Assembly: GCA_030699905.1 (NCBI GenBank)
Contig: JAUYKQ010000025.1
Span: forward strand, 1 to 55,206
DNA from: a bacterium
GTDB taxonomy: Bacteria > Patescibacteriota > Minisyncoccia > Phycocordibacterales > GCA-002787175
Direction of reading: 5' to 3'
Length of the DNA stretch: 55,206 bases
In this document: in pieces, positions 1-52,212 of the stretch
Layout of the letters: each line of letters begins with the position of its first letter
How positions within the stretch are numbered: the stretch's first letter is position 1
Notes under the pieces: model-generated
What the model saw: the letters and a program-made list of their open reading frames with translations, nothing else
Database searches by the model: none
What the model was told of the DNA's origin: nothing
Made by a program: the position numbers and the translations under genes

Positions 1-22
1 TTCACATTCCATGTGATACGTA
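1..22 (-). repeat. edge of a further rRNA hairpin insertion (E0), truncated by the window
   Basis: tcacattccatgtgat is identical to the right edge of E3 (1836-1851) and close to that of E7. Confidence 0.5.
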
Positions 23-140
23 CCGCCGTTATTTGACCTTCTGGCATTGGTCAAGTGTCACCCCCTATACATCCTCTTTCGAGTTCGCAGGGAGCTGTGT
101 TTTTGATAAACAGTCGCCAGGCATACTTTAGCTGCGGCCC

Positions 141-287
141 AGCGCGCAAAGCGCGCAAATCACAAGTTTGTAAAGTAAAAAGTTTATCAAGTTTATCAAG
201 TAAGAACGGAAAATTTTGTTTTTACTTTATAAACTTTACAACTTTATGAACTTTCAACTTGATGAACTGCGTGCTTTGCACGCCAGG
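141..287 (-). repeat. rRNA hairpin insertion E1 (variable helix-63-like position of domain IV)
   Basis: Clamp gcgcgcaaagcgcgc ... gcgtgctttgcacgc encloses AT-rich arms of aagtttat/aagtaa words. Conserved 23S sequence resumes on both sides. Confidence 0.75.
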
Positions 288-820
288 CAGGCCTTATCGC
301 TAACTTACGGCCGCTTTTTTGCCGAGTTCCTTGGAGACCTCTCACTCGTTCGCCTTACTCTACTCGAGCAGATCACCTGTGTCGGTTTGCGGTACGGTTT
401 TCATATAACTGAAGCTTAGAGGATTTTCTCGGAAGGCTCTTCGCGAAGATTTTCCCCCGAAGGAGAATTTCTCCCGAAAACGCGCATGGTATTAAAACCA
501 GCTCTTCGGATTTTCCTGAAAAGCTACGCTCATTTCAAGAGACGACTAATCCAATAAAGCGCCTCCGCTTGTTTCCTTCGTCCCCCCATCGCATTATATG
601 AAAGTCACGGAATATTAACCGTGTGTCCATCGGGTCCGGCATTCGCCATCCCCTTAGGCCCGACTAACCCTTGGCTGACAATCATCGCCAAGGAAACCTT
701 GATCTTTCGGCGTGCGGGTTTCTCACCCGCATTGTGGTTACTTGTGCCAACATTCTTGCTTCCAAACGCTCCACCATGGGTCACCCCTTTGGCTTCATCG
801 CAGATTGGAATATTCTCCTA

Positions 821-950
821 CCGCGCCTCGCGCAAAGCACGCGAACGCCGATTGTCGCCGATAAGACGCCGATGTTCGCGGATGAAATTCATCCGCGTTA
901 ATCCGCGTTTTATCCGCATATTATCCGCGTTCTTGTGCTTTGCACAAGGC
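821..950 (-). repeat. rRNA hairpin insertion E1b (helix-45-like position)
   Basis: Clamp cgcgcaaagcacgcg ... cttgtgctttgcacaag. Arms are built of cgccgat words on the left and atccgcg words on the right. Confidence 0.7.
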
Positions 951-1189
951 ACCCTCAGTTTCGGTACTACGCTTAGCCCCGATTATCTTCGGCGCAAATT
1001 CTCTTAGCGAGTGAGCTGTTACGCTTTCTTTGAATGATGGCTGCTTCTGAGCCTACATCCTCGCTGTCTTTGAAAATTCACCACCTTGAGATGCACTTAG
1101 CGTAGATTTAGGGACCTTAACTTGAGATCCGGGCTGTTTCCCTTTTGACGAACGGAGCTTAGCCCCCGCCGTCTAACTGCCACACTCTA

Positions 1190-1317
1190 CCGCGCAAAGC
1201 GCGGAAGTTACAAGTTCATCAAGTTTGTAAAGTCTGTAAAGTTTGACGGGGAAATTCCCCTTCCGACTTTATGAACTTTATAACTTTATAACTTTATAAA
1301 CTCCGTGCTTTGCACGG
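1190..1317 (-). repeat. rRNA hairpin insertion E2 (domain II)
   Basis: ccgcgcaaagcgcgg ... ccgtgctttgcacgg clamp. Arms are caagttcatcaagtttgtaaag / ctttatgaactttataactttat. Loop is gacggggaaattcccc. Confidence 0.75.
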
Positions 1318-1696
1318 TTCTTCTGGTATTCGGAGTTTGATAGGTCAAGCGAGCTTTCGCCCTGTCTTAACCTTCCAGTGCTCTACCCCCAAAAGGAACG
1401 TGTGACGCTAACCCAAAAGCTATTTCGGAGAAAACCAGCTATTACCAGATTCGATTAGCTTTTCACTCCTTACCACAGGTCATCCGATAGTATTGCACGG
1501 CTAACCGGTTCGGGCCTCCATCCGCCTTTCGGCGAACTTCACCCTGCCCATGGCAAGCTCATCTGGCTTCGGGTCTTTAGTATACGACAAACGCGCTATT
1601 CACACTCGGTTTCCCTACGGCTCCGTGCTTTAGAGGCACTTAGCCACGCCGCATACTAAAACTCGTTGGCTCATTCTTCAATAGGCACGCCGTGAC

Positions 1697-1860
1697 CGTC
1701 GCATCACGCGAAACGCGAAATCAGTTTATAAAGTAAAAAGTTATAAAGTTCATCAAGTAAGAAAAGCGAGCCTCTAAAATCCGGCATCGGTTTTACTTTA
1801 TGAACTTGCAACTTTATGAACTTGATAAACTTAAATCACATTCCATGTGATGCGGCGGCT
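1697..1860 (-). repeat. rRNA hairpin insertion E3 (helix-25-like position)
   Basis: ccgtcgcatcac ... gtgatgcggcgg stem base, internal mini-hairpins gcgaaacgc and cacattccatgtg, and AT-rich word arms. 142/155 nt identical to E7 by manual alignment. Confidence 0.8.
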
Positions 1861-2163
1861 CCGACTCCTTGTAAGCATATGGTTTCAGGTCTATTTCACT
1901 CCCCTCACCGGGGTTCTTTTCACCTTTCCCTCGCGGTACTAGTTCACTATCGGTCTAAAGAAGTATTTAGCCTTACCGGTTAGTTCCGGCAGATTCCCCC
2001 AAGCCATTCGTGTCTTGAGGTACTCAAGAACAAAAACAAAGAAGTTATTTTGCTTTCATGTACGGGGCTATTACCCTCTGGGGCAGTTCTTTCCAGAACT
2101 TTCCATTAACAAAATAATTTGTAACTTCCCTCGTATAAATACAACGTTTTTGTCTTACAACCC

Positions 2164-2308
2164 CTCGCGCGAAGCGCGCTGAACTCGACACGAATCTACG
2201 AATAGAAGATGCGAATGACACGAATAAAATCAAGTTTTGTTAATTTTATTCGTGTCATTCGTTCTTTACATTCGTGTCATCAGTGTCATGTACAGTGTGC
2301 TTCGCACA
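2164..2308 (-). repeat. rRNA hairpin insertion E4 (uses the cgaata/gcgaat word family)
   Basis: cgcgcgaagcgcgc ... gtgtgcttcgcacaa clamp. Arms are acacgaatctacgaatagaagatgcgaatgacacgaataaaat / attttattcgtgtcattcgttctttacattcgtgt. Confidence 0.75.
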
Positions 2309-2352
2309 AGGTTTGGGCTTCTGCGCTTTCGCTCGCCGCTACTGACGCAATG

Positions 2353-2510
2353 GGCGCGCTCCGCACGCAAGTTACAAGTTGAAAGTTTGAAAGTTGAAAG
2401 TCAAAAGTTGAAAGTCAAAGAAGGACGGAGTCCTTTCTTCACTTTACGAACTTTATGGACTTTTTACTTTATAAACTTTTTACTCTATAAACTGCATGCG
2501 AAGCACGCTT
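2353..2510 (-). repeat. rRNA hairpin insertion E5 (domain I)
   Basis: gcgctccgcacgc ... gcatgcgaagcacgc clamp. Arms are made of gaaagtt/caaaagtt words paired to actttat/aacttt words. Loop is ggacggagtcc. Confidence 0.75.
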
Positions 2511-2552
2511 GTTTTCTTTTCCTCCAGGTACTGAAATGTTTTACTTCCCTGG

Positions 2553-2690
2553 GTGCGCTCGCGCGAAGCGCGAGCAAGTCAAAAGTTCATAAAGTTATAA
2601 AGTTTATAAAGTAAAAACAAAATCTGTCGTTCTTACTTGATAAACTTGATAAACTTTTCACTTTATAACTCGTTCGCGCTTCGCGCGTCT
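2553..2690 (-). repeat. rRNA hairpin insertion E6 (helix-9/10-like position)
   Basis: gcgctcgcgcgaagcgcgagc ... gttcgcgcttcgcgcg clamp. Arms are aaagttcataaagttataaagtttataaagt / acttgataaacttgataaacttttcacttt. Confidence 0.75.
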
Positions 2691-2847
2691 CGTGCAAGCA
2701 CGAGGGGTTTCCCCATTCGGACATCTCCGGATCAAAGGTTGCTAGGCACCTCCCCGAAGCTTATCGCAGCCAAGCTACGTCCTTCATCGCCTTCTTTAGC
2801 CAAGGCATCCACCATATGCTCTTAATTTCCTATTAGGAAACTTGTAT

Positions 2848-6833: not shown

Positions 6834-7158
6834 GCCAGATTCGGGAGCGCATATTCGCATCCAATTCGGGATTATTCGAGTAAACACTTTCGACCTTTTT
6901 AAAGCCAAACTCCGTCCAGAAGGACGGAGCCAAATAGAAATCCGTGCAAAAAAGCACAGAAACCTCGGCAGGATCCTTGCGGATTATTAAAGCTTTCGCT
7001 TCCTGTCCCGAAGCCGACCTTTCGGTCAGCTTCGGGACCCCGACTAACGTCGGGGCTGTCTTTGGCCTTATGAAGGAAACATTACCAAAAACGCGCCCTT
7101 TTGGCAAATTTTGCAATAAGGGCTTTGCGTATTCTGCATTGCCAGCCGATGGGTGGGC

Positions 7159-7242
7159 GTCGCAAGGGAAGTTCCAAAAAAGTGACCGCTCCAAGGGCGC
7201 TTGCCTAGGGCTCAGTCACTTTGTTGGAACTTCCCTTGCGAC
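7159..7242. repeat. MITE-like palindromic element, copy A (diverged outer arms)
   Basis: gtcgcaagggaagttccaaaaaagtgaccgctccaagggcgcttgcctagggctcagtcactttgttggaacttcccttgcgac. Core is shared with 12323, 20038 and 33419. Confidence 0.75.
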
Positions 7243-7279
7243 GCAGAGTCAAAACAGGAGCTCTGTAATTTGAGATATT

Positions 7280-20037: not shown

Positions 20038-20170
20038 GGAATCACGAAATACGGCAGGCACCCCCAAGAGGAAGTTGCAAAAAAGTGACCGCTCCAAGGG
20101 CGCTTGCCCGGTCTTAGTCACTTTTTTGCGACTTTCCTCTTGGGGGTAAAAAGCGGGTATTTCGTAATTC
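20038..20170. repeat. MITE-like palindromic element, copy C
   Basis: ggaatcacgaaatacggcaggcacccccaagaggaagttgcaaaaaagtgaccgctccaagggcgcttgcccggtcttagtcacttttttgcgactttcctcttggggg...tatttcgtaattc. Confidence 0.85.
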
Positions 20171-26295: not shown

Positions 26296-26448
26296 GTGTG
26301 TAGCGTGTAGCGTGTAGCGTGTAGCGTCAAAATCGTGTAGCGCGAAGCGTATAACGTGTAGCGTCAGAGTATTTCTTTTCCGGCGTTACACGTTACAAGT
26401 TACAAGTTTTAGATTATGGCGTTACAAGCTATACGTTACACGATTAGC
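26296..26448. repeat. about 150-nt hairpin of gtgtagcgt / acgttaca words in the ssb-rpsR spacer
   Basis: gtgtagcgt x4 on the left, gttacacgttacaagttacaag on the right. 26355-26404 is identical to 52126-52175 (50 nt). Confidence 0.85.
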
Positions 26449-27682: not shown

Positions 27683-28642
27683 TTATACCTTGAACATCTG
27701 CCGTGCATTTTTCAAGAGCTGTGCTTGCACGTATTTGAGCGGCATCCCCTTTATCTCCGCTATTCGCTTCACCACCTCCGCTACGTAAATCGGCTCGTTT
27801 CTTTTCCCTCTATGAGGAGCAGGCGTTACATACGGGCAATCGGTTTCCGAAAGAATTCTGTCAATCGGCGCGTATTTTACAAGTTCGTCGTAGTCGCGGG
27901 TGAAAGTGATAACGCCCGTAAAAGATACGTTGAATCCGACATCCAAAATCTCTTTTAGCTCGTCAATTGAGCCGGCAAAGAAGTGGAAATTGCCGCGTGG
28001 AGATGATTTATGATTTACCCTGTGAAATTCGCTAGAAGCGAAAGCCGAAGACGGTTTTTTCACAGGGTTTACGATATATGATTTAAGAATAGAAACCGCG
28101 TCTCTGTAGGCTGAAATCCCCCTCTCCCCCTCTTTGAGGGGGAGATGTCCGGAGGACAGAGGGGGTGCCGGATTTCTCACATGAAGCATAAGCGGCTTTC
28201 CTACTTCAATCGCCAATTCTATCTGCTTCCGGAACGCCTCTTCCTGTTTTTTATGTTCCGTGTTCCATGTTCCATGTTCCATGCGGTAGTAGTCCAATCC
28301 ACACTCCCCTATCCCCACCACTTTCGGGTGCTTTGCCAGATTTTTGTAATACTCGTAATCAAATTCTTCTCCGCGCGAGGTGAACTCTCGGTTCCCTTCC
28401 CCCAGCTCTTTCTCATCATGAAAACTCTTGTCGGTGTGTATCGGGTGCGTTCCGACGATTGCGTAGACGCCTTCTTTATATTTCTCGGCAATCTCCACCG
28501 CTTTTTTGCTCGTATCTTTCTGCGTGCCGACATTTATCATCCACGTATTATTCTCCAAGGCGCGAGAAATAACCTCGTCCCTGTCCGAGTCGTAAGCGGC
28601 AAAGTTTACGTGCGCGTGGCAATCAATAAAAGATGGATTCAT
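27683..28642 (-). CDS. TatD-family metal-dependent hydrolase carrying three in-frame insertions
   Basis: FIDCHAHVNF, GIGECGLDYY, KPLMLHVRN, FHFFAGS, LSETDCPYVTPAPHRGKRNEP. 319 aa versus about 255-260 for canonical TatD. Confidence 0.85.
   Translation of the reverse strand: MNPSFIDCHAHVNFAAYDSDRDEVISRALENNTWMINVGTQKDTSKKAVEIAEKYKEGVYAIVGTHPIHTDKSFHDEKELGEGNREFTSRGEEFDYEYYKNLAKHPKVVGIGECGLDYYRMEHGTWNTEHKKQEEAFRKQIELAIEVGKPLMLHVRNPAPPLSSGHLPLKEGERGISAYRDAVSILKSYIVNPVKKPSSAFASSEFHRVNHKSSPRGNFHFFAGSIDELKEILDVGFNVSFTGVITFTRDYDELVKYAPIDRILSETDCPYVTPAPHRGKRNEPIYVAEVVKRIAEIKGMPLKYVQAQLLKNARQMFKV
28003..28084 (-). repeat. in-frame hairpin insertion 1 in tatD-like CDS
   Basis: atgatttatgatttaccctgtgaaa ... 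tttcacagggtttacgatatatgattt encodes IVNPVKKPSSAFASSEFHRVNHKSS, which has no counterpart in canonical TatD. Confidence 0.7.
28113..28176 (-). repeat. in-frame hairpin insertion 2 in tatD-like CDS
   Basis: gaaatccccctct-ccccctctttgagggggag-...-agagggggtgccggatttc encodes PAPPLSSGHLPLKEGERGIS. Confidence 0.7.
28253..28283 (-). repeat. in-frame gttccatg word array in tatD-like CDS
   Basis: atgttccgtgttccatgttccatgttccatg encodes MEHGTWNTEH. The same array occurs in ileS at 40703-40731. Confidence 0.75.
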
Positions 28643-33418: not shown

Positions 33419-33553
33419 GAATTACGAAACACTTGCTTACCCCCCCACTCGGAAAGCTCCCAAAAAAGTGACCGCTCCAAGGGCGCTTGCCCGGGGCTCA
33501 GTCACTTTTTTGTGACTTTCCTCGTGGGGGGGCGTCTGCCGTATTTCGTAATT
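33419..33553. repeat. MITE-like palindromic element, copy D (most complete)
   Basis: gaattacgaaacacttgcttacccccccactcggaaagctcccaaaaaagtgaccgctccaagggcgcttgcccggggctcagtcacttttttgtgactttcctcgtgggggggcgtctgccgtatttcgtaatt. Confidence 0.85.
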
Positions 33554-34270: not shown

Positions 34271-35602
34271 TTATTTCGTCACGAGTTTTGATATATGTGC
34301 TGAAAGTTCGTTTACCCCCACCCTCTCCTGCTCTCCAGTATCGCGGTCTCTTACGGTGACATCGTGTTTTTCAAGCGAATCAAAATCAACAGTTACGCAA
34401 AACGGCGTACCGATTTCGTCTTGCCTGCGGTAGCGCTTGCCGATGTTTCCGTTGTCGTCAAAGGCAATCATGGAGCATGGAACTTGTAGCATAGAGCATA
34501 AATCCTTACGGACTTCCCTCGCCTTTTCCACCAGTTCCGGTTTATTTTTAAGAAGAGGAAAGACGGCTACTTTAACGGGAGCAAGCGCCGGTTTTAATTT
34601 CAAGTAGGCGCGAATCTCGCCGTTCATTTCATCTTCGGTGTAGGCGCTGGAAAGGACAGCGAGCACAGTCCTGTCAACCCCAAGAGATGGTTCAATAACG
34701 TGGGGCAAAAACGGCTCACCGCCGCCCTCTTCGCGATACGTCAAATCAACACCGCTTGAAGAGGCGTGGTTTTGCAAATCATAGTCAGTGCGATAAGCCA
34801 GTCCGTACAATTCTTTTCTGCCAAAAGGAAAATCGTATTCAAAATCAATGGTCCGTTTTGAATAGTGCGCTCTTTCGGAATCTGCCACTTCAAGCTCGTA
34901 CACTTTTTCCTTAGGTAAACCGATTTTTTCTATCCAGCTGTTCATTAGTTTTCGCCACTCTTCAAACTCGCCCTTCCAGTCGTCCGGACGAACAAAATAC
35001 TCAACCTCCATTTGCTCAAACTCTCTGGCGCGAAAAAGAAAATCTCTCGGAGAAATTTCGTTTCTAAATGCCTTGCCCATCTGTGCTATTCCAAAAGGCA
35101 ATTTTGGATGGAAAGAGTCAGAAACGTTTTTGAAATTTGTAAAAATGCCCTGGGCGGTTTCGGGACGCAGATATGATACCGATTCGCTATCTTCAGAAGC
35201 TCCGACATGGGTTTTAAACATCATGTTAAACTGTCTTTCTGCTCCGAGTGTCCCCCCACAATCAAAACACTTGTCTTTGTTTTCAAGCTGGTCAATTCTA
35301 AATTTCTTTTTGCATTTTGAACATTCCACCATCGGGTCAGAAAATCCGCCAACATGTCCGCTGGCCTCCAAAACTTTTTGACTGGTTAGGGTAGCCGCGT
35401 CAATTCCATACATATTTTCTCTATCCGTAACAAACATCTCCCACCACAAGTTTTTTATGTTATTTTTCAGCGCAAGACCGTAAGGTCCGTAATCCCAAAA
35501 CCCCGAAAAACCGCCGTATATTTCGGACGCGGGATACACAAACCCCCTTCTCTTGCAAAGTGAGACGATTTTTTCCATTTGGTTATTTTTCTCTTCTTTC
35601 AT
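34271..35602 (-). CDS. glyQS: glycyl-tRNA synthetase, alpha2 (GlyQS) type
   Basis: GKAFRNEISPRDFLFRAREFEQMEVEYF (class II motif 2), GVDRTVLAVL (motif 3 region), anticodon-binding IGKRYRRQDEIGTPFCVTVD. Confidence 0.9.
   Translation of the reverse strand: MKEEKNNQMEKIVSLCKRRGFVYPASEIYGGFSGFWDYGPYGLALKNNIKNLWWEMFVTDRENMYGIDAATLTSQKVLEASGHVGGFSDPMVECSKCKKKFRIDQLENKDKCFDCGGTLGAERQFNMMFKTHVGASEDSESVSYLRPETAQGIFTNFKNVSDSFHPKLPFGIAQMGKAFRNEISPRDFLFRAREFEQMEVEYFVRPDDWKGEFEEWRKLMNSWIEKIGLPKEKVYELEVADSERAHYSKRTIDFEYDFPFGRKELYGLAYRTDYDLQNHASSSGVDLTYREEGGGEPFLPHVIEPSLGVDRTVLAVLSSAYTEDEMNGEIRAYLKLKPALAPVKVAVFPLLKNKPELVEKAREVRKDLCSMLQVPCSMIAFDDNGNIGKRYRRQDEIGTPFCVTVDFDSLEKHDVTVRDRDTGEQERVGVNELSAHISKLVTK
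34469..34499 (-). repeat. probable in-frame word patch in glyQS
   Basis: catggagcatggaacttgtagcatagagcat encodes CSMLQVPCSM directly before the conserved DDNGNIGKRYRR block. Confidence 0.45.
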
Positions 35603-35659
35603 ATTTTTATTCTGCGGTTTTTCTTATGTTCCACGTTTCGTGTTTCGTGTTACACGATA

Positions 35660-40218: not shown

Positions 40219-43200
40219 CTATATGTCAAGCGAGAAAAAGAGATTTTCTATAGCAATGTTTTCCGTCGCCACGTCTTCAAAACTCATATCCTTAAGTCCC
40301 GCCGTTTTCTGAATTTCACTTTTATTTTTTTCAAGAAACGCTTTGCCTGTATCATCGGCCTTGACTTTTAGCACGACAGAATCGCTCGGGTTTAGCCCTT
40401 TCTTTTTGCGTAAATCCTGCACGGCGCGGATGAATTCCCGCACCGTTCCCTCCTCCTTAAGCTTTGGCGTTATTTCCGTATCAATCTCCACTTCTCCGGA
40501 AATCGTGTCGTCCAAAACAACCTCTTTTACATTCACCTCGTCTTTCACAAGGTTTATCATTTGCTCGTCTCCGACTTTAAACTTTAAACTTTTAACTTTT
40601 AACTTGTTTAGCGGCTGTCTCACTTTTATACTCGCTTTCGCTCTCTGCTCCAGTGCCAGCGAAACAATCCTTCTCACCTCTTCCATATCTTCAAGCATTT
40701 TTGTTCCATGTTCCATGTTCCATGTTCCATGTTTCGGCCATTCTTCCAGATGCACGCTTTTATCATGTAGCGTGTAGCATGTATCGTGTAGCGACTGATA
40801 CAAATGTTCGGCAAAAAACGGTGTAAACGGCGCCAAAAGTTTTGATAGTTCTATCAAGACATGTCGCAGAGTTGTCAGAGCTTCTTTGTCCCCCTCCTTT
40901 ATGCGGTCACGCGAACGCCGAAGATACCACTGCGACAGATCGCCGATAAATTCACGTATCGCTCTTGCCGGCTCAAGAAGCTTGTAATTATCAAGCCCTT
41001 CAGTTACTTCCCCAACCAGTTGACCCAACCTCGCGAGAACCCATTTGTCCAAAACATGCCCCTTCTCGGATGTTGCATGTTCCATGTTGTGTGTTCCATC
41101 TTTTGAATACAAAAGATAAAACTGCAGAACATTATCGGCGAGGTTAAACACCTTCTTCACTATCTCGTCCACCGTCTTTTCATCATAATTTTTCGCTTCC
41201 CCCGGCTGATTGACCGAGTACATCCAAAAACGCAAAGCGTCCGCTCCGTATTTTTCCATCTGCTCCTTTGGGTCAATAACGTTGCCGAGCGACTTGCTCA
41301 TCTTTTTACCCTTGGCTTCCAAAAGATGGCCGAGAGAAATGACGTTTTTGTAAGCCGCTCCTTTGCCCATCAAAACGCCGATTGCGTGCAAAGTGTAAAA
41401 CCATCCGCGCGTTTGGTCTATCGCCTCGCAAATATAATCGGCCGGATACCCCTTTTCATCTATGTAGTCCTTGTTTTTAAAAGGGTAATGGTCCTCCGCA
41501 AAAGGCATGGCACCCGAATCAAACCAAACGTCCATGACCTCTTTGACTCTTTTCATCTCGCCTCCGCATTTACAAATTAAAGAAATTTCGTCTACGCGAG
41601 GTTTGTGCGGGTCCAGTTCTTTACCGGTCGAGTTGTCAACATAGACGAAAGACGCCTCGGCGTATCCCCCCAAAAGCCCGCGTTTAAAAGTCCTTCTTTC
41701 TTGCCACAAATTCGTAACCTCCTGAAGCGACAAATTTTTCAAATAGCGCAAAAGAAAAATAAGAGGCCCTTCGTGGGACACTATGGCCACTGTTTCGCCT
41801 TTGTGCTTTTCCAAAATCTCGCGAACAAAATCAGACATTCTGTCTTCCACCTGCTTCCAGCTCTCCCCCGTCTGCCCTCTTGGAGTGAGGTAATACTTTT
41901 CATCAGGAAGACCGTTGTAGTCAAGACGATTTCTATTTATGAGAGAGTCCTGAGGTTCTTTGCCGTCCCATTGCCCGCTTTTTACCTCCCAAAGACGGTC
42001 GTCCAAAATGTTTTTGATTTTAATATTTTCCGCCACAATGTCTGCCGTTTCTCGAGCGCGTAAGACAGGAGATGAATACAAAGCATCAACGCCAAGCGCC
42101 GCCAGTTTCTTGCCCGCTTCTTTGGCTTGCTTTTTGCCCTCTTTTGTCAGAGGATATTTATCTCTTTCGCTGTCAAAAATACCGTCAATGTTTTTCTGGC
42201 TCTCTCCGTGGCGCAAAAGTATCAAACGAGTCAAAGGCCTGCCCGCTCCCAACTTAAATATTTCTTCAAATGACCCAACGACCCGCGTTTTTCCGCATCC
42301 CTTCTGCTTGCTATCGGTTTTTTGTAACTCTTCACCTTCAAAAATCTTAAATTCCGAACCTGAAATCTTGCCCGTTTGGATTTGCGGACAAATCCAAACG
42401 GGCAAAGGCGTTCCCCAATACCTCTCTCTTGAAATAGCCCAATCCTTTATATCCTTCAGCCACTCTCCAAACCTGCCCTCTTTTATATATTCCGGCTCCC
42501 AGTTTATTTTTTTATTTTCCTTTACGAGTTTGTCTTTTATTTTTTTGTCGGACATTTTTATATACCAAGAGTCCCGGGCGAAATATATAAGCGCGCTATG
42601 GCATCGCCAACAGTGAGGATAGCTATGCTCATATTTTTCTTTCGCGAAGAGAAGTCCGCGATGAGCCAAGTCCTTTATTATCTCCACGTCCGTACTTTCG
42701 GTCTTCACTTGTTTGCCCGAGAGAAACCCTGTTTCCTTCTTGAAAGTACCGTCTTCATTTACCAAATGATACTTGGGTAGCCCTTCTTTTGTTCCCAACT
42801 GAAAGTCGTCTTGTCCGTACATAACCGCCGTGTGCACGATTCCCGTGCCGTCTTCTGTCGTAACAAAATCCGCCGAATAAACCTTGAAAGCAGGATTTAG
42901 GGCTTCAGGATTTAGGGCTTTAGCAAGAAATGGATACAGAGGTTCGTATTCAAGTCCGACTAATTCCCCTCCCGTAAATTCCTCAATGATTTCGAACTCT
43001 TTATCTTTTAGAACATTCCCTATCCTCTCTTTTGCCAGTATGTATTCTTCCTTTATTCCTGATTCTTGATTCGTAATTCCGATCCGAACATATGTTATGT
43101 TCGGATTTACCGCAAGAGCCACATTCCCCGGCAATGTCCACGGCGTGGTCGTCCAAGCCAACATATAAGTTGGTTTGCCATTTTGAATTTTTAATTTTGA

Positions 43201-43863
43201 ATTTATTTCGGATTTCGGATTTCGGATTTGGAATTTCGCCGTTATCGACAAGTCCTTGACTGTCTCATATCCTTGAGCCAACTCGTGTGACGAAAGCGCC
43301 GTCCCGCATCTCGGGCACCACGGCACTACTTTGTAGTCCTTATACAAAAGCCCCTGCTCGTCTATTTTCTTTACTATGTTCCAAACCGATTCTATATAAT
43401 ACGGCTTGTAGGTAACATACGGGTGTTCCAAGTCAATCCAATAGCCCACCCTCTCCGTAAATTCTTCCCATTCGCGCACGTATTTCCAAACGCTCTCTTT
43501 GCATTTTTGATTGAACTTTTCAACGCCATACTCTTCAACTTCTTTTTTTGACTTAAGCCCGAGTTCTTTTTCCACCTGTATTTCAACAGGCAGTCCATGA
43601 GTATCCCAACCGCCTTTTCTCCGCACGTAAAAGCCACGCATTGTTTTGTATCGCGGTATGGCATCTTTAAACGCTCGGGACTCCAAGTGGTGAATTCCCG
43701 GCTTGCCATTGGCGGTAGGAGGCCCTTCGTAAAAAATGAATTCCTTGCCGGAGTCCTTGTTTTTTTCAAGAGTTTTTTCAAAAATACGGTTTTCCCTCCA
43801 CAACTCCAGTATTTCTTGCTCCTTTTTTGCCCTTTCCGAGCGGACATCTTTTTTGTCAGTCAT
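40219..43863 (-). CDS. ileS: isoleucyl-tRNA synthetase (type 2-like) with a nested histidine-phosphatase domain and several word-repeat insertions
   Basis: PPTANGKPGIHH (HIGH), TTPWTLPGN, ISRERYWGTPLPVW, VMDVWFDSG, GKKMSKSLGNVIDP (KMSKS). ATG at 43863 (MTDKKDVRSE...). Confidence 0.9.
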   Translation of the reverse strand: MTDKKDVRSERAKKEQEILELWRENRIFEKTLEKNKDSGKEFIFYEGPPTANGKPGIHHLESRAFKDAIPRYKTMRGFYVRRKGGWDTHGLPVEIQVEKELGLKSKKEVEEYGVEKFNQKCKESVWKYVREWEEFTERVGYWIDLEHPYVTYKPYYIESVWNIVKKIDEQGLLYKDYKVVPWCPRCGTALSSHELAQGYETVKDLSITAKFQIRNPKSEINSKLKIQNGKPTYMLAWTTTPWTLPGNVALAVNPNITYVRIGITNQESGIKEEYILAKERIGNVLKDKEFEIIEEFTGGELVGLEYEPLYPFLAKALNPEALNPAFKVYSADFVTTEDGTGIVHTAVMYGQDDFQLGTKEGLPKYHLVNEDGTFKKETGFLSGKQVKTESTDVEIIKDLAHRGLLFAKEKYEHSYPHCWRCHSALIYFARDSWYIKMSDKKIKDKLVKENKKINWEPEYIKEGRFGEWLKDIKDWAISRERYWGTPLPVWICPQIQTGKISGSEFKIFEGEELQKTDSKQKGCGKTRVVGSFEEIFKLGAGRPLTRLILLRHGESQKNIDGIFDSERDKYPLTKEGKKQAKEAGKKLAALGVDALYSSPVLRARETADIVAENIKIKNILDDRLWEVKSGQWDGKEPQDSLINRNRLDYNGLPDEKYYLTPRGQTGESWKQVEDRMSDFVREILEKHKGETVAIVSHEGPLIFLLRYLKNLSLQEVTNLWQERRTFKRGLLGGYAEASFVYVDNSTGKELDPHKPRVDEISLICKCGGEMKRVKEVMDVWFDSGAMPFAEDHYPFKNKDYIDEKGYPADYICEAIDQTRGWFYTLHAIGVLMGKGAAYKNVISLGHLLEAKGKKMSKSLGNVIDPKEQMEKYGADALRFWMYSVNQPGEAKNYDEKTVDEIVKKVFNLADNVLQFYLLYSKDGTHNMEHATSEKGHVLDKWVLARLGQLVGEVTEGLDNYKLLEPARAIREFIGDLSQWYLRRSRDRIKEGDKEALTTLRHVLIELSKLLAPFTPFFAEHLYQSLHDTCYTLHDKSVHLEEWPKHGTWNMEHGTKMLEDMEEVRRIVSLALEQRAKASIKVRQPLNKLKVKSLKFKVGDEQMINLVKDEVNVKEVVLDDTISGEVEIDTEITPKLKEEGTVREFIRAVQDLRKKKGLNPSDSVVLKVKADDTGKAFLEKNKSEIQKTAGLKDMSFEDVATENIAIENLFFSLDI
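40575..40606 (-). repeat. in-frame word patch in ileS (aactttaa words)
   Basis: ctttaaactttaaacttttaacttttaacttg encodes KLKVKSLKFKV. Confidence 0.55.
40703..40731 (-). repeat. in-frame gttccatg x4 array in ileS
   Basis: gttccatgttccatgttccatgttccatg encodes HGTWNMEHGT. Confidence 0.75.
40764..40793 (-). repeat. in-frame gtgtagcg-family word patch in ileS
   Basis: catgtagcgtgtagcatgtatcgtgtagcg encodes HDTCYTLHD. Same words as the intergenic hairpins at 26296 and 52104. Confidence 0.7.
41072..41100 (-). repeat. in-frame gttccatg-like patch in ileS
   Basis: gttgcatgttccatgttgtgtgttccatc encodes DGTHNMEHAT. Confidence 0.6.
41620..42235 (-). other. histidine phosphatase (PGAM / His_Phos_1-like) domain nested inside ileS
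   Basis: TRLILLRHGESQKN (RHG), YSSPVLRARETADIV, VAIVSHEGPLIFLL. Canonical IleRS sequence lies on both sides, with no stop codons. Confidence 0.75.
42367..42407 (-). repeat. 17-bp perfect hairpin inside ileS
   Basis: ttgcccgtttggatttg-cgga-caaatccaaacgggcaa. The mRNA-sense 5' arm encodes conserved LPVWIC; the 3' arm encodes the non-canonical QIQTGK. Confidence 0.85.
42891..42924 (-). repeat. in-frame tandem duplication/word patch in ileS
   Basis: caggatttagggcttcaggatttagggctttagc encodes KALNPEALNPA (tandem ALNPE/ALNPA). Confidence 0.65.
43181..43238 (-). repeat. in-frame word patch in ileS (cggattt / gaatttt words)
   Basis: ttttgaatttttaattttgaatttatttcggatttcggatttcggatttggaatttcg encodes NPKSEINSKLKIQNGK. 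Confidence 0.65.
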
Positions 43864-43969
43864 ATATAGACAGTTTAAGGTATTTTCGGCCTTTTTCCAA
43901 ACGTGTACACCGGCCATGAACAACAAACCGTATGCCAATGGAACCACAGTGTTCGTTTCAGCGCAAACT

Positions 43970-45112: not shown

Positions 45113-46834
45113 TTACATCTTCTCCGGCGTCTTAATACCGAGAAGCCATAGCCCGTTTTTCATCACTTGAGCAAAAGCGGCTGTCAGGGCAACCTTGTAA
45201 GGAGAAGACGGGTCGCCTTTGTCCACTATTTTTTCTTTGGCGTACCAAGAATTGAACTGGCTCGCCAATTCAGTGAGGTAAGTGACAAGATGGTGTGGGG
45301 CGTATTCTTCCCCCGCCCTTTCCACCACTTCCGGAAATCTAATCAGCATCCTGTCCACCGCTCCCGCTTTTCCTTCCATTTTTAAATCGGAAATCTCAAA
45401 TCCTAAATCTTCTTCGTCTGCTTTCTTCATCACCGCCTTCGCTCGCACATAGGAATATTGCAAATACGGGCCCGAATCCCCTTCAAAAGAAACCGATTTT
45501 TCAAAATCAAAAACAATATCTCCTCCTATGGCTTGTCGCAGTATGGAATACTTTATTGCTCCGACCGCGATAATTTCAGATGTTTCTTCTCTTTTTTCTT
45601 CAGAAAAATCTCGTTCTTTCATTTTTTCCTTAACCAAATTCTTAACCTGCTTCAAAAGCGCCTCGCCTGTTATGACATTTCCTTTTCGCGAAGACATCTT
45701 ACCCTCTGCAAAACGCATCATCCCATGACTTATATGCGTGGTCTTCCGTCCAATTTTCTCATCTACTTCGCGCAAGGCGGAGAGCACAACCTTAAAATAA
45801 TCGTCCTGTTCGCTTGCGGTTACAATTATAGACCTTTCAAGGTTTTCGTGACGTTTAAATTTTTCCGTGTTTAAACCCATCTCTTTGGCTTCGTATGTAG
45901 GCAACCCCTTTGAAGTCACAAAGACCCTTTTATGCAGTCCTCTTTTCTCACCATCAAATATGACGGCTCCTTCGCTTTCTTCAAATACTCCTTTTTTCAA
46001 AAACTCCAGCGTTATTTCCTTTCCTCTGCCCGCCACTTCACTTTCAAAAATGTATTCATCAAATTTTGTGCCCAAAACGGCGTAAAGTTCTTCAAAATGT
46101 TCCAAGCTCCATGTTCGGCCTTTTTCATATATTTTATTCGCTTCCGCGTCTGACTTTTCATAAAGAATTTTGTTTAGCGCGTCTATTTCGGCTTTATCTT
46201 CCTTGGAATTCTCATAAGCATTGGAACCGAATACATACGCTTCGCCCAAAAAAGCGGTTTTTTCCGACAACGAGTCGCTGTCTTTCGGAACGCTGTCAAG
46301 TTTATTTTTGTATCCCCAAACAGCTTTTGCGATATGAAGTCCCGTGTCGCTCGGGTAGCACATTCTCACGACCTTCGCTCCGGAAAACTCCGTCAAACGG
46401 GAGATGGATTCTCCTATGGCATTACTCATCAAATGCCCGATATGAAACGGCTTGAAAATATTAGGGTCGGTGTATTCCACCATTACTTTTTCATCCACAA
46501 GATGCTCACTTTTTCCAAACCCTTCTTTTTCCTCCAAAATATCTGTTACGCCAAGGGCAAAAACTTTTGGTTTTAGATGGAAGTTTATAAATCCCGCTCC
46601 CGCCACCTCTGCTTTTTCCACTTCTTCGGGCTGATTTGCAGTGACACGCTCTACCAAATCATTCGCGAGCTCCCGCGGACTTTTGCCGACCTTCTTTGCG
46701 TAAACAAGCGCCGCGTTTGTGGCGTAGTCCCCATGCGCCAAATCAGCCGGATGGGTGATGATTATTTCGCCTGCCGATATTCCGAGTTCGGCCAGAGCTG
46801 ATTTTATTTGTAAAATTATTTTTTCCTTTATCAT
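45113..46834 (-). CDS. argS: arginyl-tRNA synthetase
   Basis: DPNIFKPFHIGHLMSNAIGES (HIGH), GKMSSRKGNVI (KMSK-like), C-terminal DALR anticodon-binding domain. Confidence 0.9.
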   Translation of the reverse strand: MIKEKIILQIKSALAELGISAGEIIITHPADLAHGDYATNAALVYAKKVGKSPRELANDLVERVTANQPEEVEKAEVAGAGFINFHLKPKVFALGVTDILEEKEGFGKSEHLVDEKVMVEYTDPNIFKPFHIGHLMSNAIGESISRLTEFSGAKVVRMCYPSDTGLHIAKAVWGYKNKLDSVPKDSDSLSEKTAFLGEAYVFGSNAYENSKEDKAEIDALNKILYEKSDAEANKIYEKGRTWSLEHFEELYAVLGTKFDEYIFESEVAGRGKEITLEFLKKGVFEESEGAVIFDGEKRGLHKRVFVTSKGLPTYEAKEMGLNTEKFKRHENLERSIIVTASEQDDYFKVVLSALREVDEKIGRKTTHISHGMMRFAEGKMSSRKGNVITGEALLKQVKNLVKEKMKERDFSEEKREETSEIIAVGAIKYSILRQAIGGDIVFDFEKSVSFEGDSGPYLQYSYVRAKAVMKKADEEDLGFEISDLKMEGKAGAVDRMLIRFPEVVERAGEEYAPHHLVTYLTELASQFNSWYAKEKIVDKGDPSSPYKVALTAAFAQVMKNGLWLLGIKTPEKM

Positions 46835-51130: not shown

Positions 51131-52102
51131 TTAGGACTTGCTTGCCGTGCGGTCTTTTTCATCAAACCCTCCGGCAACTGTCATCTCTCCTTTTAGGCGC
51201 GGGTGAGAGTCATAGTTTTCAAGAGTTACTAATTCGGGCTTGAATGTTTCCAAGCTTTTCACTTCATCGTTTATGACAAGACGAGGGAAAGGTTTTGGCT
51301 CCCGAGTTATCTGCTCTTTCACCTGTTCAATATGGTTTTCGTAAATATGAGCATCGCCGAAAGTGTGGACAAATTCTCCGGGTTCATATCCGCATATTTT
51401 CGCCACGATCATAGTTAAAGCGGAATAACTTGCGATATTGAATGGGACCCCGAGAAACATATCCGCGCTTCGCTGATAAAGTTGGCAGGACAATTTATTG
51501 CCGGCAACGTTAAAATGAAAAAGAATGTGGCAAAGCGGAAAAGAAAGCGCTTCGCCCGGTCGGGCCATGGCGTAAAGATAAGTCGGATTCCAAGCGGAAA
51601 GAATGGCGTGCTTGCGTTCCGGATAATTCTTCAGAGTGTTTATAACCCATGCAAGCTGGTCTATTTTCCTTCCATCATCGCTCGCCGTCCATGCCCTCCA
51701 CTGCTCTCCGTATATGTGAGGTAGCTCGCCGTGTTCTTTGGCAAACTCATCGTCGGTTTTTATCTTATCAACAAATTCTTCAAGAGAAAGAATCGGCAGT
51801 TCGCCTTTGTCCGATTTTTTCTTGTAAATTTTGTAAGGATAATCGTTCCATATCGGCACTTTATTATCCACCAAATATTTTATATTTGTCTGCCCCGACA
51901 TAAACCAGTAAAGCTCGTGAAGGATGCTGTTCCATGGTACTTTTTTGGTTGTCAAAAGAGGAAAACCCTTTGACAAGTCAAACCTGATTTGCCTTCCAAA
52001 GACGCTCACAAGCCCTATGCCGGTATTGTGGTCGTGCTTTAAGACACCGTTTTCTAAGATGTCCTTGAGAAGATTTAAATATTGTTGTTCGGGGTGAAGC
52101 AT
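51131..52102 (-). CDS. thyA: thymidylate synthase ThyA
   Basis: WNPTYLYAMARPGEALSFPLCHILFHFNV (catalytic Cys region), LYQRSADMFLGVPFNIASYSALT, GDAHIYENH. Confidence 0.9.
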   Translation of the reverse strand: MLHPEQQYLNLLKDILENGVLKHDHNTGIGLVSVFGRQIRFDLSKGFPLLTTKKVPWNSILHELYWFMSGQTNIKYLVDNKVPIWNDYPYKIYKKKSDKGELPILSLEEFVDKIKTDDEFAKEHGELPHIYGEQWRAWTASDDGRKIDQLAWVINTLKNYPERKHAILSAWNPTYLYAMARPGEALSFPLCHILFHFNVAGNKLSCQLYQRSADMFLGVPFNIASYSALTMIVAKICGYEPGEFVHTFGDAHIYENHIEQVKEQITREPKPFPRLVINDEVKSLETFKPELVTLENYDSHPRLKGEMTVAGGFDEKDRTASKS

Positions 52103-52103
52103 G

Positions 52104-52212
52104 GCGTATAGCGTGAAGCGTGTAGCGTGTAGCGTCAGAGTATTTCTTTTCCGGCGTTACACGTTACAAGTTACACGTTGTATATTATGGCGTTACAAGT
52201 TACATGTTTTGC
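52104..52212. repeat. about 110-nt gtgtagcgt / acgttaca hairpin in the dcd-thyA spacer
   Basis: Shares a 50-nt identical core (52126-52175) with 26355-26404. Confidence 0.85.

Follow-up and report, generated by a model that had tools for sequence, protein, structure and literature searches.

Tandem arrays of heptanucleotides have been known for decades from cyanobacteria, Xanthomonas, Burkholderia and the giant sulfur bacteria, and three puzzles about them are long-standing: why the unit has 7 nt, why the arrays stop at about four units and why the same words turn up in distant phyla. In many bacteria heptanucleotides are the most abundant class of long simple sequence repeats (LSSRs), and slippage connected with polymerase contacts has been proposed as their origin, as far as the account of this work in a later paper goes (Mrazek 2007 in PMC4679880). 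In Xanthomonas most GGGAATC arrays are four units long, and convergent inverted pairs of them are frequent (Rehm 2015, PMC4692102), and one heptamer word, TAACTGA, is common to distant phyla with no evident mechanism of transfer (MacGregor 2015, PMC4679880). Here we describe arrays of this kind inside ileS, the gene for isoleucyl-tRNA synthetase (IleRS), of a groundwater bacterium of the Parcubacteria type. The DNA analysed (the window) is the entire contig JAUYKQ010000025.1 of a groundwater metagenome (assembly GCA_030699905.1, 55,206 nt), and two independent runs contain the locus.

The closest counterparts are the short tandemly repeated repetitive (STRR) sequences of cyanobacteria, the GGGAATC arrays of Xanthomonas and the GGGGA(T/C)T arrays of Nostoc (PMC4679880, PMC4692102). 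Like the arrays of the window they have a 7-nt unit, an excess restricted to period 7 and about four units; STRR and LSSR arrays further share the convergent inverted stem-loop pairs, the dispersal over both strands and a proposed slippage origin. However, 89-93% of them are intergenic and each genome has one dominant G-rich word, whereas the 55-kb window holds at least 10 different heptamer words and is not predominantly intergenic in its arrays: 8 of the 21 lie inside genes, six of these eight in one essential synthetase, and arrays also occur in the 23S rRNA. [quoted passage not shown] The TAACTGA repeats of marine Beggiatoaceae, cyanobacteria and Bacteroidetes (PMC4679880) also consist of a heptamer word, in sets of two to six copies, that is shared across phyla; many lie directly upstream of start codons, and some lie in open reading frames (ORFs), there in the stop-free orientation and mostly at the protein periphery. 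TAACTGA has stops in all forward frames and is nearly always intergenic, with a few intragenic cases in hypothetical proteins or at termini, unlike the arrays described here, which are internal to conserved enzymes (IleRS and TatD in the window; PriA, TsaD, LigA, MiaA, TyrRS and AddA in other genomes). The Rickettsia palindromic elements (RPEs), as summarised in PMC10969869 from Ogata 2000, resemble the ileS arrays in lying in frame in unrelated housekeeping genes, where they encode surface peptides compatible with the fold, and in occurring in RNA genes and intergenic DNA as well. In that summary they are palindromes of about 100-150 bp with a family-specific peptide, whereas the ileS patches are about 30 nt long, non-palindromic and readable in three frames, and several of them replace sequence.

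We found no report of heptamer arrays in Patescibacteria or inside essential enzymes; the kind of array is already known, and its occurrence in ileS and in Patescibacteria is new as far as the literature that we found goes. The uptake sequences of the Pasteurellaceae and Neisseriaceae occur in both orientations and all frames at tolerant positions of genes and as inverted-pair hairpins between genes; they are kept above neutral expectation and arise in place without change of length, with one non-tandem motif per lineage. The arrays of the window differ in that their words are many, tandem and common to several phyla, distant ones included, and they are not a lineage-specific uptake signal of a single motif. 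The small dispersed repeats of Nostoc, reportedly described by Elhai in 2008, are said to be fixed sequences of 21-27 nt that are associated with tandem heptamers and hairpins; they are said to be unique sequences nested in heptamer arrays, whereas here the dispersed unit is the heptamer array itself.

Heptanucleotide arrays in ileS

The ileS ORF lies at 40219-43947 on the minus strand and has 1242 codons. Repeat calls in the window were made by Tandem Repeats Finder (TRF), and ileS has seven patches of about 30 bases, six of them period-7 arrays and one a 15-nt duplication. The letters in brackets refer to the array sites listed further below.

P1 (site F), 40574-40605, minus strand: ACTTTAA in 4.6 copies, in sense AAGTTAA AAGTTAA AAGTTTA AAGTTTA AAGT; encodes LKVKSLKFKV.
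P2 (site E), 40702-40733, minus strand: TGTTCCA in 4.6 copies with 100% matches; encodes HGTWNMEHGT.
P3 (site D), 40764-40793, minus strand: TGTAGCG in 4 copies, in sense (GCTACAY)x4.3; encodes (L)HDTCYTLHD.
P4 (site C), 41071-41100 (41070-41099 in TRF), minus strand: ATGTTCC-like word in 4.3 copies; encodes DGTHNMEHAT.
P5, 42891-42920, minus strand: 15-nt in-frame tandem duplication (GCCCTAAATCCTGAA / GCCCTAAATCCTGCT), not made of heptamers; encodes ALNPEALNPA.
Additional patch (site B), 43051-43079, minus strand: decayed array of GGAATCA/AGAATCA, (A/G)GAATCA-like; encodes ITNQESGIK.
P6 (site A), 43180-43238, minus strand: two abutting arrays; encodes NPKSEINSKLKIQNGK.

At 40702-40731 P2 is an exact copy of the 30-nt unit CATGGAACATGGAACATGGAACATGGAACA, and it continues for two further phase-matching bases to 40733; P4 is a decayed CATGGAA 30-mer with five mismatches, in the same codon phase as P2. 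On the sense strand P6 reads (AAATCCG)x3.6 followed by (AAATTCA/AAATTAA)x3.6, which TRF reports as ATTTTGA x3.6 at 43180-43204 and ATTTCGG x4.9 at 43205-43238. Every heptamer array in ileS has a copy number of 3.6-4.9, in keeping with the size of about four units that is commonest in the described systems. A sequence-only reading of this DNA had named six patches, three of them within 230 nt, and all six are reproduced by TRF and translation with their coordinates and peptides (P1, P2 and P3 span 40574-40793). Its count of at least six had missed the array at 43051-43079, and the 8-nt words that it quoted are 7-nt units which take in one base of the next unit. P5 had been grouped with the rest; it is indeed a 15-nt repeat, in frame, but is no member of the class of heptamer arrays.

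Period 7 alone is over-represented in the window as a whole, with 8-10 arrays against 0-3 at other periods and 0 under a third-order Markov null; head-to-tail 7-nt units with this excess are what defines LSSR and STRR arrays. In the ileS coding sequence (CDS) there are six period-7 arrays and none of other periods, against 0.006 expected under codon permutation, so that the codon-shuffled null, which the sequence-only reading had offered as its own refutation, is rejected. When synonymous codons are resampled with the protein kept, 0.70 period-7 arrays are obtained (maximum three in 1000 trials); because this is so far below six, the periodicity of the DNA is not a by-product of the peptides. 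The data support the view that the patches are word arrays at the level of DNA and not repeats at the level of protein. With six of the eight CDS arrays of the window on 8.3% of its CDS length, ileS is a hot spot (binomial P = 8e-6).

Words are shared between arrays of the window far beyond chance: 12 array pairs have the identical word once rotation and strand are made canonical, against 0.27 expected (P ~3e-16). The word GGAACAT is, as had been claimed, common to ileS (40702-40731 and, degenerate, 41071-41100) and the tatD-like gene (28254-28283), and GTGTAGC is common to ileS (40764-40793) and the hairpins upstream of rpsR and thyA (26296-26445 and 52098-52185). A vocabulary shared with the rRNA hairpins holds more loosely, since the closest rRNA counterpart of the P1 word, at 2390-2415, differs from it at 3 of 19 positions; most rRNA arrays of the window have units of 8-9 nt. 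The array in the tatD-like gene is as follows.

TatD-family copy, 28254-28283, minus strand: CATGGAA 30-mer with one mismatch, in codon phase 2; encodes MEHGTWNTEH.

No hairpin partner was found near any of the ileS arrays, and the coding arrays are single arms, that is, direct repeats. The sole inverted repeat reported in ileS (43073-43110) is unrelated to them, and the arrays are neither palindromes nor bounded by terminal inverted repeats in the manner of RPEs or of MITEs (miniature transposable elements with inverted repeats).

Position in the enzyme and translation

The start codon of ileS is probably that of M29, at 43863, which gives a product of 1214 residues (P0001). Pfam identifies in the ORF the class-I synthetase core (tRNA-synt_1), the anticodon-binding domain (Anticodon_1) and DUF5915 (residues 1116-1233). 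The best matches in the PDB are the Thermus thermophilus enzyme (1ILE) and the IleRS2 structures 8C8U-8C9D, 8C8W among them, with E ~1e-237. Because 1ILE and 8C8W match far better than the type-1 enzyme of S. aureus (1FFY, E ~1e-97; 4e-97), the ORF is assigned to the type-2 (eukaryote-like) IleRS, of which the C-terminal DUF5915-type domain is also a mark. Identity to the nearest public proteins, which carry the labels Taylorbacteria, Parcubacteria or Paceibacterota, does not exceed 67%.

A complete histidine-phosphatase domain (His_Phos_1) is embedded in the enzyme (41707-42225, minus strand; ORF residues 575-747). It follows the zinc-knuckle region, precedes the second half of the catalytic core and has intact RHG and SHEG motifs. 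All 120 of the best homologues have it, which makes it a feature of this IleRS throughout the lineage; we found no paper on a His_Phos_1 domain embedded in IleRS.

The IleRS protein was aligned with 28 and then with 120 orthologues, and homologous sequence continues in frame on both sides of every array. P3 adds five residues relative to all 28 aligned orthologues (the linker has 13 residues here and 8 in 84 of the 120 homologues), P2 adds four (17 residues against 13 in the commonest form), the 43051 patch about six (22 against 16) and P6 seven to 13 (a loop of 25 residues against common forms of 12 or 18). P1 brings no change in length relative to the homologues, and its first residues fall on a semi-conserved strand, L-K-[VIL]-K; P4 lies in a variable loop with no or little net change. 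P5 has 13 residues where 103 of the 120 homologues have a conserved 16-residue segment, KDNLSxxEKxKLxNAF, which is overwritten with a loss of three. The proposal that each patch is an insertion is not supported in that form: P2, P3, P6 and the 43051 patch lengthen variable loops by 4-13 residues, P1 and P4 are neutral and P5 is shorter. The contrary case, in which the patches would align with conserved residues, applies in part to P1 and P5, and the other patches lie in variable parts. A clean insertion of whole units, as for an RPE or a MITE, is not what the alignment gives: the net changes are +4, +5, 0, about 0, -3, +6 and +7 to +13, and never +10. No target-site duplication was found at the flanks of the arrays, where base preferences are weak (T or G before, A-rich after).

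In comparison with the solved IleRS structures, of which 1ILE and 8C8W match best, the patches fall at gaps or variable stretches; they lie in variable parts of a type-2 IleRS. An AlphaFold model of the last 463 residues (predicted template modelling score, pTM, 0.71) places P4, P3 and P2 in inter-helix loops with predicted local distance difference test (pLDDT) values of ~53, ~70 and ~64, respectively. In the model the P3 loop follows helix 264-275, and P1 starts in a beta-strand and runs on into a loop.

All patches keep the reading frame, as had been noted, and the ORF is intact through the seven; this alone is uninformative because ileS is essential. A consensus-perfect repeat would put an in-frame TAA inside six arrays from four ileS genes, and a sense codon stands at every such position: TTA here, and GAA, AAA, AAG or TCT in the other ileS genes. 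In P1 the change of the unit from TAA to TTA avoids the in-frame stop of the perfect array. Sense codons at every would-be stop suggest, on the sequences compared, that the arrays are translated and filtered by selection. An intron, an intein or a translational bypass, for which neither frame nor stops would be constrained, does not fit. In the genes of other genomes all three codon phases and both orientations occur; stop-free frames are kept, as the sequence-only reading had expected, and there is a bias of 2-3:1 to the orientation that reads as a hydrophilic peptide (sense to antisense 21:9 for GGAACAT and, among the matches listed, 42:13 for AAATCCG). The arrays would thus be translated in frame at surface positions of housekeeping proteins, in the way of the RPEs.

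Orthologous genes, other genomes and the origin of the arrays

The gene was compared with the DNA of five orthologous ileS genes, all of which have period-7 arrays inside ileS and intact frames. The arrays of the six genes lie at six sites, given here in P0001 residues.

Site A: 208-232
Site B: 260-274
Site C: 921-936
Site D: 1024-1035
Site E: 1042-1059
Site F: 1085-1103

The six sites hold different words in different species, and a given word also stands at different sites. Site E has CATGGAA here, AGATTCA in P0007, a perfect GGAATCA x4.6 in P0008, a decayed GGAATCA in P0003 and AAGTTAA in P0029; its linker has exactly 17 codons in all five array-bearing species, three unrelated words among them, and P0017 has the 13-codon form with no array. 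The AAAGTTA word occupies sites A and F in P0008, site F here and site E in P0029, and site F of the relatives holds AAAGTTA, AATCTTA or AGAATCA arrays. Site A is a 66-nt block of equal length here and in P0017, with halves that are uniform for differing word variants (AAATCAC.. and AAATTCC in P0017). The 43051-43079 array is orthologous to a better-preserved array in P0003. Among the 120 IleRS homologues there are 81 cases of identical tripeptides at a distance of 7 residues, against 11-45 for other distances; the 7-residue-spaced tripeptides cluster at the few array sites, and at site C period-7 peptides occur in 12 of the 120.

The permissive sites of IleRS also take longer inserts that are not heptamer arrays (P0009 and P0011 in the P5 region, P0010 in the P2 region, P0012 in the P1 region), for example NPSxxKNxxLPLGKGEL and IPARLNETSRSGG, which points to colonisation of these loops by other repeat families as well.

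When one genome per species is scanned with (GGAACAT)x3.3, 107 stretches are obtained, against ~0.02 expected for a random 23-mer; many are in classes of the Patescibacteria and some in Bacteroidales, cyanobacteria, Thiomargarita and others. Exactly 30 nt (CATGGAA x4 + CA) is the length of 31 of the 108 perfect GGAACAT runs, a sharp mode, and in unrelated flanks 43 of the 108 start with CATGGAA and 48 end with TGGAACA. A metagenome scan with AAATCCG, the word of P6, gives at least 120 stretches; among the matches listed the mode is 32 nt (AAATCCG x4 + AAAT), 69 of 124 start with AAATCCG and 55 of 124 are internal to ORFs (frames of >=200 aa), as are 30 of the 108 GGAACAT arrays. Other heptamer words peak at 27 and 31-32 nt. 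Inside long ORFs the 32-nt mode of AAATCCG is unchanged and arrays of 31-32 nt are equally common (again among the matches listed), which rules out a 30-nt unit as the reason for frame-keeping. The ~0.9 Mb of loci from the GGAACAT scan, mostly of Patescibacteria, hold 88 period-7 arrays with GGAACAT itself excluded, against 0-15 in a comparison over periods 5-11. Nineteen of the 20 array-bearing ORFs tested from other genomes encode ordinary enzymes: an AddA-type helicase-nuclease, PriA (twice), TsaD (twice), LigA, MiaA, TyrRS, a Mur ligase, HemE, IspDF, RNase HII and others. These 20 ORFs of many kinds, a MetE-like one among them, rule out a specific link to aminoacyl-tRNA synthetases (aaRSs), which weak arrays in argS and in a class-II aaRS gene had prompted.

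Some surroundings of the arrays recur. In GC-rich metagenome contigs (L128, L154, L167, L185, L196, L206 and others) a GGGTGGGTGG-like motif often precedes the 32-nt AAATCCG array, and in L193 5 bases separate the end of the array from the start codon that follows; the product of that ORF begins with MAHKKG. Several CATGGAA arrays of Saccharibacteria abut start codons and have a common downstream flank, AAAACTACGACG.

With about even confidence, we read the ileS patches as members of a genome- and lineage-wide population of short heptanucleotide arrays of the STRR/LSSR type (about 4-4.6 units, 28-32 nt) that are made and homogenised at the DNA level, tolerated in loops and translated. The arrays originate at the DNA level, independently of coding; a period of 7 passes through all three reading frames. 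In the mechanism proposed, an array would be created and kept uniform by copy-choice, the nascent strand being transiently mispaired one unit out of register (slipped-strand or template-switch), and such an event would either lengthen a loop or overwrite sequence in place with the length unchanged. Arrays in ileS would then survive only at six permissive surface-loop sites, at the entrance of the editing domain, in the anticodon-binding domain and in the C-terminal domain, and only in versions that are free of in-frame stops and biased to the orientation giving a hydrophilic peptide; they would be translated as 10-residue 'three-frame' peptides with no part in aminoacylation. For ileS, survival at permissive sites in a stop-free and translated form, without a role in aminoacylation, is either seen directly or strongly implied. 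The length of the gene and its many tolerant loops may be the reason why it is struck so often. Copy-choice is favoured because it explains the length-neutral arrays, the orthologous arrays that are internally uniform for differing words, and the variants that avoid stops.

Several observations weigh against this reading. The fixed ends of arrays in unrelated contexts and phyla are unexplained by simple in-place slippage, and the same few words recur in the window and across phyla. A slip of one unit in ileS is a frameshift, so that homogenisation would have to be length-neutral. Arrays are also conserved beyond their surroundings: the array site of the TatD-family gene is kept in another Parcubacteria genome (L037), where nucleotide identity to the window is 0.90 in the array (third positions 0.80) and 0.56 in the flanks (third positions 0.34), and in the MetE-like genes of L024 and L051 the array is identical at 30 of 30 positions between flanks of 65-71% identity. 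Fixed ends, conserved words and a restricted vocabulary point either to discrete units that are dispersed or to function or drive. It is possible, and we put it forward tentatively, that heptamer arrays of fixed size (~30-32 nt, four units and a partial one, about three helical turns) are written and maintained in place by a system active at the DNA level, in loops of essential enzymes and rRNA helices among other positions, with a limited set of words across Patescibacteria and other phyla. The arrays would then be functional sites or ultra-small selfish elements, not passive products of slippage.

Of the explanations that differ from copy-choice, the one that survives best, though we think it rather unlikely, is that the arrays are discrete selfish micro-elements of ~30-32 nt (4.3-4.6 units) which are copied by templated insertion or cassette-like replacement and merely tolerated by the ileS loops; as selfish DNA they would be akin to the small dispersed repeats of Nostoc or to the in-frame RPEs. 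Sharp length modes and fixed ends across unrelated flanks, genomes and phyla are what such elements would give, and the canonical 30-mer, exact in P2, with one mismatch in tatD and five in P4, looks like copies of different ages. The presence of one word at different ileS sites in different species, and of unrelated words in the 17-codon site E linker of five species, is in line with it, as is the depth of the array 31-mers in the source metagenome, 10-40x that of the surrounding gene (718 against ~18 for the P6 word). However, the arrays have neither terminal inverted repeats nor target-site duplications, and their flank preferences are weak; no enzyme that goes with them was identified. Among the matches listed, the 32-nt AAATCCG unit is as common within long ORFs as outside them; as 32 does not divide by 3, the arrays cannot have come about by simple insertion of the unit. 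The net changes in ileS (+4, +5, 0 and -3 residues) never include the +10 of a whole unit, and perfect AAAGTTA arrays, which have a stop in every frame, could not have entered an essential gene whole. The GGAACAT array has just 2 matches in the 2.9 million viral contigs of IMG/VR, which excludes phages as the vehicle.

The arrays might also be functional nucleic-acid sites, either binding arrays for a repeat-domain DNA- or RNA-binding protein or products of drive (biased uptake and recombination), which we consider improbable. Selection or drive would keep them wherever the peptide can be tolerated, much as uptake signal sequences are found within genes in Haemophilus and Neisseria. At orthologous sites the nucleotides of the array are conserved far beyond those of the flanks; this conservation, the fixed lengths and ends, and the occurrence in both orientations and all frames of coding DNA and as inverted pairs in intergenic hairpins would all be expected of such sites. 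Many arrays elsewhere lie directly upstream of start codons, as reported for TAACTGA (PMC4679880), and the in-place, length-neutral appearance of the ileS arrays is what drive acting on point mutations predicts. One sequence-specific reader, however, is a misfit with at least 10 words in one 55-kb window and with the same words in very distant phyla of different GC content; in ileS, moreover, the copies P4 and 43051-43079 are decaying, and orthologous arrays at site A have switched word between species.

Phase-variable genes classically contain repeat units whose length is not a multiple of 3. Contingency loci, in which changes in the number of 7-nt copies would switch ileS or create variants of it, match the arrays in this respect (background in PMC4679880) and are nevertheless very improbable. 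IleRS is essential and single (the window has one), none of the seven patches interrupts the ORF, the arrays are short (~4 units each, several of them imperfect), every relative has the sites occupied and its frame intact, and a single form of the locus is found in the two runs that contain it, as judged on contigs only. Chance, in the form of low-complexity lysine/asparagine-rich loops, or an assembly artefact is hardly credible: the peptide of P1 resembles homologue residues (LKVKSEKLKV and similar) and Logan unitigs break at two arrays, but both null models are rejected, homologous flanks are in frame at every array, the locus is in two independent runs and relatives from other studies carry arrays at the same sites.

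Whichever process makes the arrays, ileS is a compact natural experiment, with six sites repeatedly occupied by differing words and a protein alignment that serves as an exact before/after reference. Arrays can appear there length-neutrally and are filtered for stops codon by codon, with array conservation above neutral expectation, and the question of their origin is now testable by population genomics of Patescibacteria. In practice, the patches distort and inflate alignments of marker genes, assemblies break at shared 31-mers, and apparent lineage-specific insertions in CPR proteins are not protein adaptations.

Other repeats of the window

The GTGTAGC word of P3 recurs in two intergenic hairpins.

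Hairpin between ssb and rpsR, 26296-26445, plus strand: arms (GTGTAGC)n and (GTTACAC)n; shares words with P3.
Second copy of the hairpin between dcd and thyA, 52098-52185, plus strand: loop GTCAGAGTATTTCTTTTCCGGC, identical to that of the first hairpin.

Both lie inside minus-strand operons (ssb-rpsR and dcd-thyA). Their fold z-scores are -8.6 and -7.2, and the fold energies are -69.9 and -42.3 kcal/mol on the plus strand against -43.2 and -20.4 kcal/mol on the transcribed minus strand; the plus strand folds better because of G-U/G-T pairs. Convergent inverted pairs of this kind are characteristic of LSSR and STRR arrays, and inverted AAATCCG pairs are also found in L114, L117 and L133.

A partial 23S rRNA gene occupies 1-2835 (minus strand) and covers 1902 model positions in 2835 bases. 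The ~900 extra bases are largely hairpins of tandem 7-9-nt words (AAGTTTATC, ACTTTATA, AAGTTGA and others).

A second repeat family, at 7150-7250, 20055-20150 and 33435-33535, consists of ~95-nt palindromes with a conserved core AAAAAAGTGACCGCTCCAAGGGCGCTTGCC...GTCACTTTTTTG, for which no Rfam family scores above threshold. For the GTGTAGC hairpins and the GTGAC palindromes Rfam gives only sub-threshold matches to generic hairpin models.

The TatD-family gene (27683-28642), which also bears the CATGGAA array, has at 27997-28170 (minus strand) an in-frame stretch of ~60 residues that is absent from the aligned orthologue, itself cut by a contig end. The stretch holds two palindromes, CCCTGTGAAA...TTTCACAGGG and a CCCCCTC/GAGGGGG pair, and is an RPE-like insertion.

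Weak period-7 arrays occur in argS, the gene for ArgRS (AAATCNN, 45384-45411), in the class-II aaRS gene (ATGCTCY, 34469-34499) and in intergenic DNA at 35626-35653 (ATGTTCC/GTTTCGT).

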